DNA of 64,000 nt from Elusimicrobiota bacterium (GCA_016180815.1 JACPAN010000013.1:54939-118938); one strand, 5' to 3'; positions 41,180 to 59,378 are shown, counted from the first letter of the stretch. Notes: generated by a model not told the origin, from the letters alone. A program made the numbers and translations.

Positions 41180-41277
41180 GTCATTCCGGCGAAAGCCGGA
41201 ATCCAGATTTATATTTCTGTTTTTTAAAGACAACAAAATTGCGAAAGAGGGTCTGGATTCCCGCCTTCGCGATGACT
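41180..41277. repeat. intergenic palindromic hairpin element, inverted pair
   Basis: gtcattccggcgaaagccggaatccag ... ctggattcccgccttcgcgatgac between two minus-strand genes. Confidence 0.8.
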
Positions 41278-41309
41278 AAATCAAAAAAGGTGTCGCCGGA
41301 AAGTGTATT

Positions 41310-43409
41310 TTACCGGACGTCGGAGAAAACTTTCAGCAGCGCGTCGTAGGAAACTTCGTAGGACTTTTTGCCGCCGGAGGCCATCAGCTTGTTCAGTTTC
41401 TCGCCGACTAAGAGCATTTCGATGATTTCCCGGTTGACCTCGATGCGGGCGAGCTGATAAATGTACTCGATTAAGAAATCCGCCATCTCTTGGGCATTGC
41501 CCCAGTAGCCGCTCGCGATCGCGCTTTCCAAATCAGGCGAGAGCGCCCCGCCCAGGCTCGTCAAGATTTGATCCCTGCTGATTTCGCAAGGTTCGCCGGC
41601 AACGCAAGTGTAAGGAATCTCTAGGGCACCGCCGATCTGAAAAAGGAGCCAGTTTTTAAACAGGGTCTCATCAGCAGAGATCAGGCCGGGAACCGGCGAG
41701 AGCCGGCGGCCGGCGATGGCGGACAAAGCCAAGGCGTCGCGCTCCGTGTACCCCTCGGAGACCATGAAGTCGCGCAGAGCGTTTCGTCCAATCCTCATGG
41801 CCATGCCGGAGAGCAGTCGCTCGCTTGATTCAAGCGTTAGGATAGCGCTGATGGCGGGCAAATTATCGCTCAGCCATGAGCAGGTTTCCGCATATTCCTT
41901 GCCAAAATAAGTACAGAAACTTTCCACCATGGCGGCGCGCTGGAAAGGATCGGCATTGATGAAATTCGAGAAAAAAAGACCCTCTTTGCTTGGGTCTGCG
42001 CCGGTCTTGGTGGCCAAAGCCCGAAAGGCGGAGTCAAAAGTCCGGTAAGCCTCAGTAACCTCGCTGCGGTCTAGGGGCGGAGTTGTCGTATGGTAGTAAC
42101 CGACCACGCTCTTGGGCTTGACCCACGCAGGAGTCGGGCCAAGAACGCCCTCGGCACTCAACATAAAACCGCTCTCATGAACCTTAGCGGGGCCCATTTC
42201 CACCGTATCCCAAGAACCCGAGGCCGCGATTTTCAACCACGGCGCTATTTCATAGGAAGTTCCGGCCTCGCCGCCGGTACGGGAAAACTCGATCCCGGAA
42301 CCTTTTTCCCAGTGATAGCGAAAATAAAGCTCCGCCTCCCGTCCGGCCACAATGGCCGAGATCATGGCTGAAAATTTTTGTTCAAGGCTCAGCTCTTTAA
42401 ACACGCTTGTGAAGCGGACGTCCAACGCCGTTTCCGGATGATCCGGCAGGGAAGCGAGCAAGCCGCCGCCGTAATGCGGGGCATGCTCAAAAGCCGGTTT
42501 GATTTCATTGTAGCCGCCACGGTATCCCCAGATCGTTCTAAAAGGATGCGCTTCGACCACCCCTAAATTCTGCGCGTCGCCGAAGGCCGCAATCAGGGCG
42601 ATGGGAATTTCCGGGTGCCGAAACATAAAACCCATGCTGATATCGCTTTGAAAATTGGGGTATAAAACAGTGATTTTACGGTTGAGTTCAGCCTCATAAG
42701 CCGCATAGGCTTCGTTGTAGGCCTCAATCTCCGCCGGGTCGGAAGAAGAAGGCGGCTTGGGCTCTGTCGCGCGGACATTGAAAGCCGGCATGCGCCCGGA
42801 AACAGCATCCGCGATCACGCTGGCTGAAACCCCAAAATGAACGGGGCCCGCCAGCTTAAAGCTTTTGGCAAGCTCGGCAAGCACGCTGGCCCAGAATATA
42901 GGTTCCGCTGCCGATGAGCCGCTATAACTCATATAGCGGCCGGCATCGCTAAAAGCCGATGACGAATCACCTGCACCGGTATTGCCCGAAATATTCTCTG
43001 CAATAACATCCAAGTCTGCCGCTAAAGTTGGTTCCTCGGCTGGGAAAAGATTAATATGAGGCGCGGCAACCCCGCCTTTGGCGAGAAAGCGCCAGTGAAG
43101 CTTGGCTCCCGGACTAGATTCCCAACCTTTGGCTACGGTAACGTAAGGCATGACTCCCAATTTGGAACTACCAGGGCCGCCCGCAATAATGCCGGTTTCA
43201 AGCTCCAAATCTCCCCACCATTTAGGCGCAGGGTGCAGGCCTGTCCTGCCTGCCCCGAGTGGAGTCGAGGGGAGCGAAACCGAAAGGCCGAGGGGCTCGC
43301 CGGAAATCGGCGGTTTTGCCCCATCAAAAAGAACCCCGGTTAATTTGAGGCCGTCATCGGCCAGAGCCGCCTGGCCCAGAAAGAGAAGCAGGGCATAAAT
43401 TTTACCCAT
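41310..43409 (-). CDS. hypothetical secreted protein (699 aa)
   Basis: Long minus-strand ORF with signal-like MGKIYALLLFLGQAALA; no recognised motif. Confidence 0.6.
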   Translation of the reverse strand: MGKIYALLLFLGQAALADDGLKLTGVLFDGAKPPISGEPLGLSVSLPSTPLGAGRTGLHPAPKWWGDLELETGIIAGGPGSSKLGVMPYVTVAKGWESSPGAKLHWRFLAKGGVAAPHINLFPAEEPTLAADLDVIAENISGNTGAGDSSSAFSDAGRYMSYSGSSAAEPIFWASVLAELAKSFKLAGPVHFGVSASVIADAVSGRMPAFNVRATEPKPPSSSDPAEIEAYNEAYAAYEAELNRKITVLYPNFQSDISMGFMFRHPEIPIALIAAFGDAQNLGVVEAHPFRTIWGYRGGYNEIKPAFEHAPHYGGGLLASLPDHPETALDVRFTSVFKELSLEQKFSAMISAIVAGREAELYFRYHWEKGSGIEFSRTGGEAGTSYEIAPWLKIAASGSWDTVEMGPAKVHESGFMLSAEGVLGPTPAWVKPKSVVGYYHTTTPPLDRSEVTEAYRTFDSAFRALATKTGADPSKEGLFFSNFINADPFQRAAMVESFCTYFGKEYAETCSWLSDNLPAISAILTLESSERLLSGMAMRIGRNALRDFMVSEGYTERDALALSAIAGRRLSPVPGLISADETLFKNWLLFQIGGALEIPYTCVAGEPCEISRDQILTSLGGALSPDLESAIASGYWGNAQEMADFLIEYIYQLARIEVNREIIEMLLVGEKLNKLMASGGKKSYEVSYDALLKVFSDVR

Positions 43410-43630
43410 GCCTTATTTTGACCCTTGGCGGCTCCGCGATCTTGAGCCCTTAGATAGTCAGCGCAGGGTCTGCAGCCTCATTAACCCGTCATTAAAGCCC
43501 GGCCCTACGCCAAGTAAACTAACGGTTAATTAAGATGGAATGAAGCAGACTCCCAAGGTACCCTTTAACAAACTTGAGGGTGGTGGAACCGGCGAGCAAA
43601 TCACAGGAAGCCACGGACCAAGCATGGCGT

Positions 43631-43966
43631 ATGGCAAAAACTAAACCGCTTGCCAAAAAGCCGGCCGCTCCTTTCACTCTCAAGGCTTTCCAGAAAATTC
43701 TGGAAAGAACAACGGATACGTTAAAGCAAAGAATTATCGGAAGGTTGAGAAACGAACTGGCTACTAAAAAACAACTTAAGGCGTTCGCTACTAAAGAAAA
43801 ACTTAAGGCAGGCCTGGAACGCGTGGAAGTAAAGCTTTCGGGACATGATAAGAACTTTGAACGCATGGAACAAAAGTTGGACCATTTGGAAAAACAAATT
43901 GTCCATGTCGTATTCAAAGAGCATGCCCCTATGCTTGAAACCACGAAAAGCGCATCCAGAAATTAG
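43631..43966 (+). CDS. hypothetical small Lys-rich coiled-coil-like protein
   Basis: ATG at 43631 within a longer TTG-initiated ORF; flanked by direct copies of AACTAAC(G/C)GTTAATTAA at about 43512 and 44141. Confidence 0.4.
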   Translation: MAKTKPLAKKPAAPFTLKAFQKILERTTDTLKQRIIGRLRNELATKKQLKAFATKEKLKAGLERVEVKLSGHDKNFERMEQKLDHLEKQIVHVVFKEHAPMLETTKSASRN

Positions 43967-58072: not shown

Positions 58073-58091
58073 TGGGACCGGCTGCTGGAGC

Positions 58092-59282
58092 TTAGATGTT
58101 AAGGCGTTTTTTAATCTTGAGAAAAGCGTTAAGAGCGGTTTCGATGTGGGCTTGGGTATGCTCGCTGGTCATAATGGTGCGCACGCGCTCTTTGCCCTTG
58201 GCCACGGTGGGATAAGTAATGGAAAGGGCAAAAACTCCCTCGTCAAATAAGCCCTGCTCTAATTTTCGGGCCTTCTCAGTGTCTCCGGCCATAACAGGGG
58301 TGATGGGAGTTTCGGACTGCCCTGTGTCAAAGCCCATTTTTTTAAGCTCTTCTTTAAAAAAACGGGTGTTTTTCCAAAGCCGTTTGATACGTTCGGTATC
58401 GGTCTCAAGCACGTCTAAAGCCGCCAGACAAGTGGCGGTCACTGATGGAGGGTGGGAACTCGAAAATAAGAACGGTCTGGCTTTATGAAACAGAAAATCC
58501 TGCATTTCTTTAGTGCTCGCCACATAGCCGCCGATGGCCGCGATGGCCTTGGATAAGGTGCCGATTTGAATGGGGATTTGATCGGTCAAGCCGAAATGAG
58601 ACGGCGTTCCCCGGCCATTGGGACCCATGACGCCGGAAGCGTGCGCGTCATCCACCATGACAAGAGCATCGAAGCGTTCGGCGACGGCGGCAATCTCCGG
58701 CAAGGGCGCGACGTCGCCGTCCATGGAGAAAACCCCGTCCGTGACAATCATGCGCCGCCGCGTGCCCGGCGCATTTTTTTCAAGAATCCCGGCCAACGCC
58801 TTGACGTCGCGGTGGGGGTAAATAAAACGCTTGGCCTTCGACAGCCGTCCGCCGTCGATGATCGAAGCGTGGTTCAATTCATCGGAAACCAACAGGTCTC
58901 TTTCATCGGACATCACGCTTTGAACAACGGCGACATTGGTGGCGAATCCGGACTGAAGAACCACGGCGGATTCCGTGCCTTTAAATTTGGCCAACCGCTC
59001 TTCCAATTGAACGTGAATGGTTTGAGTGCCGATAATGCTGCGCACCGCCGCCGTCCCCACGCCGAAATCATCGATCGCTTTTTTCGCCGCTTGAATGAGC
59101 TTTGGATGAGTCGTCAATCCCAAATAATTATTGGAACTCAGGTTGACGACTTTTTTACCATCGATGACCGAAACGGGCTCTTGGGGAGTTCCCAAAATGC
59201 GCAAACGGCGGTGTAATCCGTTTTTCTTCAAATCGCCGAGCTCATCTTGGAGGAAGCCCAGCGCTGGATGCGCTTTAAGCAT
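58092..59282 (-). CDS. kbl: glycine C-acetyltransferase (2-amino-3-ketobutyrate CoA ligase)
   Basis: Full-length class-II aminotransferase-like PLP enzyme (VVNLSSNNYLGL, SDELNHASIIDG, lysine-containing GTLSKA), directly downstream of a threonine dehydrogenase gene. Confidence 0.85.
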   Translation of the reverse strand: MLKAHPALGFLQDELGDLKKNGLHRRLRILGTPQEPVSVIDGKKVVNLSSNNYLGLTTHPKLIQAAKKAIDDFGVGTAAVRSIIGTQTIHVQLEERLAKFKGTESAVVLQSGFATNVAVVQSVMSDERDLLVSDELNHASIIDGGRLSKAKRFIYPHRDVKALAGILEKNAPGTRRRMIVTDGVFSMDGDVAPLPEIAAVAERFDALVMVDDAHASGVMGPNGRGTPSHFGLTDQIPIQIGTLSKAIAAIGGYVASTKEMQDFLFHKARPFLFSSSHPPSVTATCLAALDVLETDTERIKRLWKNTRFFKEELKKMGFDTGQSETPITPVMAGDTEKARKLEQGLFDEGVFALSITYPTVAKGKERVRTIMTSEHTQAHIETALNAFLKIKKRLNI

Positions 59283-59321
59283 AAGCTAATGTAGTACGTC
59301 CAACACTTCTTTGCTTTTGGC

Positions 59322-59378
59322 GTCATTCCCGCGAAGGCGGGAATCCAGGCCTGGACCCCGGCTTTCGCCGGGGTGACG
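59322..59378. repeat. palindromic hairpin element, inverted pair, between tdh and kbl
   Basis: gtcattcccgcgaaggcgggaatccag then ctggaccccggctttcgccggggtgacg. Confidence 0.8.

Follow-up and report, generated by a model that had tools for sequence, protein, structure and literature searches.

Intergenic and in-frame hairpin repeats in an Elusimicrobia genome are probable members of the CGTC-1 and Ssn-related motif family

The locus and its hairpin repeats

The 64,000-nucleotide stretch of Elusimicrobiota bacterium analysed here (GCA_016180815.1, JACPAN010000013.1:54939-118938; hereafter the window) contains two types of short palindromic repeat, designated V1 and V2, which lie in spacers between genes, including the spacer between tdh and kbl, and within a giant open reading frame (ORF) encoding 6071 amino acids. 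A reading made earlier from the sequence alone (the sequence-only reading) had placed copies of a hairpin repeat at 41180-41277, 44002-44031, 54343-54419 and 59322-59378. Copies are present at all four of these sites, and the tdh, kbl and TPR gene assignments of that reading are correct. What it overlooked is that such repeats form an already described and very widespread bacterial family, whose known protein partner acts on DNA in single-stranded form and fails to bind RNA (PMC3733652, PMC11893778). The evidence presented below indicates that the hairpins in all likelihood belong to the CGTC-1 family of CGTC-tagged REPs, the family of Neisseria dRS3/NTS, Rickettsia RPE-6 and the Ssn-related motifs, whose known partner is the nuclease Ssn.

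The V1 unit is 27-28 nt long and reads (C/T)GTC-ATTCCSGC-GAAA-GCSGGAAT-CCAG. Eight intact units are found in the window; the pattern GTCATNCCSGCNNNNGCSGGNATCCAG, searched with up to three mismatches, gives eight matches, compared with 0.00 in 100 dinucleotide-preserving shuffles. Inclusion of a degenerate unit (41252-41277) and of a unit with a 5-nt loop (37372-37400) brings the V1-type units in 64 kb to 10 (Table 1). The two stem variants proposed by the sequence-only reading expand to four (ATTCCGGC, ATTCCCGC, ATACCGGC, and ACCCCGGC), and the GAAA and GAAG loops that it listed are joined by GCAA and GAAT, the loop being 4 nt long in all eight aligned units. The 8-bp stems of these units are paired in 64 of 64 cells, with no G-U pair among them, and three base pairs are changed on both sides. 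The observed covariation score was reached in none of 500 shuffles, so that the covariation suggested earlier as a check on the hairpins is indeed present. Folded as single-stranded DNA, a single V1 unit has a free energy of approximately -9 kcal/mol (z = -3.5 to -4.7), and a pair of units forms one long hairpin of -21 to -30 kcal/mol, the value for the pair at 54342..54420 being -30.1 kcal/mol with z = -9.7. Rfam and tRNA scans of the window returned no match, and Rfam has no model for the V1 hairpin.

V1-type units are arranged as four pairs and two single units, with the tags on the outside in all four pairs; tail-to-tail or tandem pairs do not occur. The earlier description of inverted pairs separated by 3-45 bp therefore holds for most copies, except that the gaps measure 2, 23, and 45 nt and that the unit at 44002 is single. 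All four intergenic sites lie 29-35 nt past the stop codon of the upstream gene, between co-directional genes, and are therefore probably transcribed. The copy at 54343 had been described as abutting the start of a TPR-like gene. The gene is a TPR gene, but its start is ambiguous, as there is no in-frame start codon from 54303 to 54471, and the pair is either translated or located in the leader.

Table 1. Repeat units in the window and the giant ORF that hosts many of them. Two units of a pair are separated by a solidus.
Feature	Coordinates	Strand and stem	Gap (nt)	Context or translation
V1 pair, head-to-head	59321-59348 / 59351-59378	(+) ATTCCCGC / (-) ACCCCGGC	2	between tdh and kbl; 29 nt past tdh stop codon, 39 nt ahead of kbl start
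V1 pair, head-to-head	54342-54369 / 54393-54420	(+) ATTCCGGC / (-) ATACCGGC	23	29 nt past stop of ORF 53441-54313; leader or N-terminal coding part of TPR gene
V1 single unit	44002-44029	(-)		head GTT, not GTC; 35 nt past stop of ORF 43574-43966
V1 pair, head-to-head	41179-41206 / 41252-41277	(+) intact / (-) degenerate, with stem deletion	45	32 nt past stop of ORF 41310-43409(-)
Mixed V1 pair, in frame in giant ORF	37320..37400 (37320-37347 / 37372-37400)	(+) / (-) 8-bp stem, 5-nt loop (GTCATGCCGGACTTGATCCGGCATCCAG), V1 head and tail kept		VIPAQAGIQ / WMPDQVRHD
V1 single unit, in frame in giant ORF	36781..36808	(-)		LDSRFRGND
V2 pair, head-to-head, in frame	34863..34942			VIASPPKAGVAI...EIASPVARND
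V2 pair, head-to-head, in frame	28131..28219			VIASEAKQS...EIASPGARND
V2 pair, head-to-head, in frame	27134..27223			other frame: SLRATGEAIS...EIATDPVGPRNE
V2 pair, head-to-head, in frame	25212..25300			VIASETKQS...KIASPKARND
V2 pair, head-to-head, in frame	23795..23872			SLRGAKRRSNP...EIASAPSEPRND; insertion relative to homologues
Giant ORF, 6071 aa	21331..39546	(+)		ResIII-like, PEP-utilizers, PPDK_N domains, repeated membrane-like segments

Comparison with CGTC-1 repeats and Ssn-related motifs

CGTC-1 repeats are defined by a terminal CGTC (often TGTC, with CCTC allowed), an 8-bp stem, a 4-nt loop, and an unpaired CCA tail; their stems almost always open with A-T pairs (complementary A-T at positions one and two), and they occur mostly as 'HH' dimers, that is, pairs with the tags outside (accessible part of PMC3733652). 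The V1 units of the window have the heads CGTC (five), TGTC (two), and CGTT (one), an A-T pair at stem position 1 in all eight and a T-A pair at position 2 in seven, and the tail CCA(G) in all eight, in addition to the 4-nt loop and the head-to-head arrangement described above. In the same portion of that article CGTC-1 is equated with Neisseria dRS3 and Rickettsia conorii RPE-6, and RPE-4 with CGTC-4; in-frame intragenic copies are reported; and Sphingomonas wittichii is given as an example host. Five phyla are mentioned there, with most hosts being Alphaproteobacteria, and Elusimicrobia is not among the phyla named in that part.

The Neisseria element was subsequently redefined as NTS, with the consensus CGTCATTCCCGCGMAVGCGGGAATCYRG, and generalised to 'Ssn-related motifs' (SRM) (Chenal et al., 2025, PMC11893778). 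Its partner SsnA is a 94-aa single-domain GIY-YIG protein (cd10448 type) that binds NTS as single-stranded DNA only, and only one of its strands, has no RNA-binding activity, and makes its cut a few nucleotides upstream of the motif. The ssn gene is typically flanked by motifs, and an effect on transformation was reported in Neisseria (PMC11893778). The unit at 59321-59348 fits the published NTS consensus exactly, and the SRM search pattern HGTCWYN(0-2)YYVSBRHN(0-5)WNVSBRGN(0-2)RNCYNB matches seven of the eight V1 units and none of the V2 units. Positions reported as critical for binding and cleavage by Ssn are likewise kept: GTC precedes the palindrome in 7/8 V1 units and C follows it in 8/8. 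An exact search with the 27-mer 59322-59348 finds it in at least 120 IMG/VR stretches. Although the sequence is thus near-identical to that of the dRS3/NTS element served by SsnA, with the same GTC head and the same C after the palindrome (PMC11893778), the host is an uncultured Elusimicrobia bacterium represented by a metagenome-assembled genome (MAG), and the most frequent stem has CCGGC in place of CCCGC. The window also lacks an ssn gene, and a role in natural transformation is reported for the Neisseria element.

Copies in related genomes and a possible role in RNA

The kbl product of the window is 100% identical to MBI2070364.1, which is annotated as coming from an Elusimicrobia MAG, and the nearest kbl homologues, at 73-79% identity, are also from Elusimicrobia. 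A search of the GTDB representative genomes with a lineage-specific protein found no relative. Gene order is kept in the contigs of these relatives (Pro_dh - tdh - kbl - (DUF2914) - peptidase M1 - ... - purH - recX - ligA). The window has a tdh-kbl spacer of 124 nt containing the V1 pair and a Pro_dh-tdh spacer of 12 nt. The tdh-kbl spacer of one relative (L326) is empty, at 0 nt, and a head-to-head pair with stems ACCCCGGC and ATACCGGC is found between Pro_dh and tdh, a pair also present in L327 and L328. Two further relatives (L331 and L329) have tdh-kbl spacers of 21 and 44 nt with no repeat. V1 stem types also occur in the relatives at sites other than those of the window. These empty or displaced spacers, together with the ~20-residue gaps in protein homologues described below, indicate that the copies have been gained and lost and are not fixed regulatory sites, in line with the mobile elements implied by the sequence-only reading. 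The contigs found to encode this kbl are short Logan contigs only, and their breakpoints are of the kind expected for multi-copy sequence: three Logan assemblies of separate runs end at 59326, inside a unit, the Logan contig L001 ends at 54393, and one contig runs from 54393 to 59326, from unit to unit.

A different situation is seen in L324, whose tdh-kbl spacer of 231 nt has no V1 or V2 unit and holds a different hairpin repeat (9760-10010 of this contig from GCA_964357255.1, ...GGCTCATCCTTCGACAAGCTCAGGATGAGCGG...); in that lineage another family of palindromes has thus settled in the spacer. The window also departs from its relatives on a larger scale. Approximately 50 kb (7473-58092) separate the peptidase M1 and DUF2914-like genes from kbl, which are adjacent or 0-3 genes apart in the relatives, and this segment, which looks like a lineage-specific island, holds a 1827-aa ORF, the 6071-aa ORF, many ORFs without an assigned family, and all repeat sites but one.

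The strongest alternative is that the hairpins function mainly as RNA elements, acting as mRNA stabilisers, processing sites, or attenuators in operons such as tdh-kbl, and that their spread is incidental. The probable transcription of the four intergenic sites and the very stable folding of the pairs are in line with this, as is the location bias near the 3' end of the upstream ORF and between co-directional genes that is also reported for CGTC-1 and taken as a hint of an RNA role in the accessible part of PMC3733652. However, the Pro_dh-tdh-kbl cluster of relatives either has no hairpin or has it in another spacer, and the hairpin is therefore not a conserved regulatory part of the operon; copies within an ORF cannot be 3' end elements; the 64 stem cells contain no G-U pair; and RNA is not bound by the known protein partner (PMC11893778). 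No T-run accompanies the V1 hairpins on the transcribed strand, and terminator-like sites are no more frequent in the window than expected. Intrinsic (Rho-independent) terminators were accordingly rejected, the sole flagged unit lying on the non-transcribed strand, and no evidence was obtained for the influence on transcript structure or start-site choice that had been suggested for these copies. An RNA function as the principal one thus appears rather unlikely, and it could coexist with membership of the hairpins in the CGTC-1 family.

The partner gene of V1

Six of the 120 listed IMG/VR stretches that contain the 27-mer carry a PF01541 GIY-YIG gene between inverted motifs, with 14 to 34 nt separating motif(+) from the gene and 0 to 25 nt separating the gene from motif(-). 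The corresponding V1 cassette pattern, searched in IMG/VR as a control, yields eight cassettes, six of them with Ssn. A profile built from the six IMG/VR proteins finds 566 relatives in GTDB representative genomes, of which the best 80 loci (82 genes, 460 kb) were analysed. These belong to Alphaproteobacteria, Desulfobacterales, Acidobacteriota, Chloroflexota, candidate phyla radiation groups, Planctomycetota, and one Elusimicrobia MAG (L294). Motifs matching the pattern flank 53 of the 82 ssn genes, and most of the remaining ones have CGTC-type variants at their flanks that escape the pattern. When only the anchors were specified (GTC-N20-CCAG), 122 copies with seven or more of the eight positions paired were found in the 460 kb, compared with 0-1 in shuffles, and these copies vary in a compensatory manner at stem positions 1, 3, and 6. 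The motif-ssn-motif cassette is thus directly observed for V1 in other genomes.

Tandem arrays of V1-type units were also seen in two IMG/VR stretches (L058 32-408 and L112 2041-2415). All of their frames are read as VIPAKAGIQ, SFPRKRESR, or HSRESGNPD peptides, and they resemble the repeat arrays of Neisseria and not gene cassettes.

Head-to-head pairs of hairpins with an unpaired tetranucleotide tag, together with a single-copy partner gene flanked by repeats, are also the hallmarks of GTAG REP, BIME, and REPIN elements of E. coli and Pseudomonas, in which REP pairs are mobilised in trans by RAYT, a Y1/HUH tyrosine transposase. A trace of such a gene is present in the window: a Y1_Tnp-type 5' remnant of ~33 codons (EFPGAYYHVMNPGLKRRPVFISDHDSQIF) at 44038-44136(+) lies 9 nt from the head of the 44002-44029 unit and is 41% identical over 29 residues (BLASTP), or 39% over 33 (tblastn), to the N-terminus of a 325-aa PF01797 protein encoded at L326:519-1496(-), although Pfam and NCBIfam gave no match for the 40-55 aa Y1-like fragment. 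The head is CGTC and not GTAG, however, and the genes found between inverted units encode GIY-YIG nucleases and not HUH/Y1 transposases; the intact Y1_Tnp gene at L326:519-1496 has no such repeat in the flanks read; and the accessible part of PMC3733652 reports no CGTC repeats beside tyrosine transposase genes. With the wrong tag, no flanked RAYT gene in the sequence analysed, and a Y1 trace that is only a remnant, a RAYT/REPIN origin was rejected as highly improbable.

The neighbourhood of the remnant has a further feature. An 18-nt direct repeat, AAACTAAC(G/C)GTTAATTAA, matching at 17/18 positions, occurs at 43516-43533 and 44145-44162. The 629 nt bracketed within 43516-44162 contain a 130-aa ORF, the single unit 44002-44029, and the Y1_Tnp remnant, and the direct repeats could represent the termini of a small inserted element or its target duplication.

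V2 units within the giant ORF

The V2 repeat (GTCATTGCGAG..GAAGCAATC) is present in the window as five inverted pairs, every one of them inside the ORF at 21331-39546, and its pattern has five matches compared with 0.32 expected. Its head is that of V1, but its stem has a 5-bp base (ATTGC/GCAAT), followed by an internal loop rich in purines and, at the apex, a small G+C-rich hairpin that varies. The commonest core is GCGNAGC, in which N is free, and which we take to form the very stable DNA minihairpin d(GCGNAGC). The giant ORF hosts all V2 units of the window and three V1-type units (36781(-), 37321(+), and 37372(-)), confirming that its copies are mostly of the gtcattgcgag...gcaatc variant, as the sequence-only reading had stated. 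Its seven in-frame sites hold 13 units, so that 13 of the 22 units (V1 and V2) lie in this one ORF. Such in-frame copies, which lie in low-constraint linkers, are possible because five of the six frames of the consensus V1 and V2 units are without a stop codon; the one closed frame, in the reverse-complement orientation, reads A-TGA-C. Recurring hydrophobic segments (LLGMAxxGGG, RG(F/M)ALLGS) are another feature of the encoded protein.

Homologues of the giant ORF were sought with HMMER among 1.8 billion representative proteins. Its only close relatives are other proteins of 1700-3400 aa, each matching one module. Two of these, P0122 (2942 aa; 42% identity over 612 aa) and P0123 (1739 aa; 37% identity over ~600 aa), align on both sides of the 23796-23871 pair and have a ~20-residue gap precisely where the repeat codes for peptide. 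The alignments show that this pair has been inserted, in frame, in a linker of the helicase-like (ResIII) module. For the other six intragenic sites the search returned no homologue spanning the junction. A 900-aa piece of the giant ORF has one homologue (P0001), and similarity ends ~10 residues before the repeat, giving no empty-site evidence there.

P0001 is a stand-alone protein of 719 aa in which the domain homologous to the giant ORF is present twice in tandem, and the 28131..28219 pair begins ~10 residues past the end of this common domain. The ~300-aa P0001-like domain of the giant ORF (27223-28131) is bracketed almost exactly, like a cassette, by the V2 pairs at 27134-27223 and 28131-28219. 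V2 pairs sit in linkers close to domain boundaries of the giant ORF. It is conceivable, if improbable, that motif pairs, via single-strand breaks or recombination, mark or mediate the insertion or shuffling of domain cassettes and so help to build giant modular genes.

Short palindromic DNA repeats that lie in frame in genes and add 10-30 residues in tolerant regions are also known as RPE-6 and RPE-4 in Rickettsia, where they affect many housekeeping proteins; here one modular protein of 6071 aa is involved, and most inserts are V2. Similar peptides occur seven times in the giant ORF, but the possibility that they form a conserved protein motif of the giant protein (e.g. VIASEAKQS or ARND) and not DNA elements is scarcely credible and is refuted by the analysis of frames and the gaps in homologues, given that the V2(+) nucleotide unit is read in two frames (VIAS.. 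at three sites, SLR.. at two), that V1-type units occur both in the ORF and in non-coding spacers, that V2 units flank ssn genes in other contigs, and that homologues have no counterpart of the 23796-23871 segment.

A distinct Ssn subclade associated with V2

V2 shares with V1 the T/C before GTC, the ATT/AAT stem base, and the C after the palindrome. It occurs in at least 120 IMG/VR stretches, mostly as head-to-head pairs with spacers of typically 20-26 nt. No recurrent neighbour gene, and no Ssn, was found beside V2 among the 120 listed stretches, nor was V2 found beside the best 80 GTDB Ssn loci, all of which have V1-type Ssn. A cassette pattern consisting of a V2 3' half, 301-361 nt, and an inverted V2 half has no match in all of IMG/VR and finds at least 120 JGI metagenome stretches. 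Among the ORFs enclosed in the 120 listed stretches, 69 stretches have a match to the Ssn hidden Markov model, 57 of them at E < 1e-5. In these V2-type Ssn proteins the motif REKQIKGGSR replaces REKRLKKWNRAWK, and the members of this subclade share 58% identity with one another and 45% with V1-type proteins. The spacing of the V2 cassette is nearly constant in the 37 that were measured, with the start codon 6-28 nt past the left unit and the right unit 0-10 nt past the stop codon.

An Ssn-like ORF is missing from about half of the 300-360-nt cassettes bounded by V2. Two of these (L336 6431-6794 and L343 895-1258) contain similar non-Ssn sequence (..ISAIIDIGSGGQSRPPLR..).

The finding that V2 flanks a distinct Ssn subclade and shares its head, tail, and pair layout with V1 places both repeats in the same superfamily, and as judged from these sequence relationships V2 is a sister Ssn-related motif paired with its own Ssn subclade. 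The single family with stem variants proposed by the sequence-only reading is therefore upheld, for V2 at the superfamily level. As far as the accessible part of PMC3733652 describes them, all four CGTC families have stems of 8-9 bp and loops of 4-5 nt, and V2 falls outside them. Searches of the literature with the V2 string gave chance primer matches only, and the supplements of PMC3733652 and PMC11893778 contain no sequences matching V2. V2 (YGTC-ATTGC-GAG-[small GC hairpin, often GCGNAGC]-GAA-GCAAT-C) may be a class of Ssn-related motif that is very widespread, is paired with an Ssn subclade of its own (REKQIKGGSR type), and has not been explicitly described before.

Other features of the window

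Two further groups of repeated sequence were noted in the window. The region 48441-53468 consists of a run of ORFs of 180-320 aa, annotated without function, that have paralogous stretches (48441-48561/51095-51215, 89% identity; 48741-48884/52860-53003, 74%; 49104-49191/53241-53328, 74%) and represent a locally duplicated gene family. The ORF 7611-8162 contains a 26-nt sequence three times at 7946-8052, with two identical copies and spacings of 39 and 42 nt, which probably encodes a short peptide repeat.

Discussion

The V1 unit is a directional DNA element composed of an unpaired (C/T)GTC head, an 8-bp stem opening with A-T, a 4-nt loop, and an unpaired CCA(G) tail, and head-to-head pairs can also fold as one long hairpin. 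If the repeats are served by Ssn, the head and the hairpin in single-stranded DNA would, according to the literature, be bound by this enzyme, a GIY-YIG nuclease of ~95 aa, which would then cleave a few nucleotides upstream of the motif. The location of the ssn gene between two inverted motifs is reminiscent of a minimal insertion sequence. We infer that the partnership of Ssn and motif may generate or maintain the copies and may affect recombination of incoming single-stranded DNA, and that the Elusimicrobia host would encode cognate Ssn enzymes. Transcribed hairpins may additionally affect mRNA.

Several points weigh against this interpretation. An ssn gene of either type was not found in the 64-kb window or in ~120 kb of relatives' contigs. 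A GIY-YIG nuclease cuts DNA, and no transposing activity is known for such an enzyme. Under standard DNA parameters, the folds of single V2 units are weak (-2.7 to -4.5 kcal/mol, z ~0), in contrast to V2 pairs, which fold strongly (-31 kcal/mol and z = -7.5 for the pair at 28131..28219), so that the V2 hairpin rests on the structure of the pairs and on the stability presumed for GCGNAGC. In addition, the activity of Ssn has been assayed for four homologues only, from three Neisseria species and Wolbachia pipientis (PMC11893778), and in the accessible part of PMC3733652 no dedicated transposase is given for CGTC repeats.

The finding is mostly ordinary, in that the hairpins are not a new regulatory element, and their correct filing in the CGTC-REP and Ssn-motif family avoids treating them as novel. 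The new points are modest and concern the phylum of the host, the evidence from empty sites, the association of V2 with a distinct Ssn subclade, and how densely in-frame copies occur in one giant gene. Failure of V2 to match the published SRM pattern implies that the published census probably undercounts Ssn-motif pairs, and V2-type Ssn is a candidate source of a new specificity for tools that cut single-stranded DNA. The window provides a clear case of the family in Elusimicrobia, including empty sites at orthologous spacers, and the seven in-frame sites in one giant gene indicate that stop-free palindromes can be freely absorbed into coding sequence.

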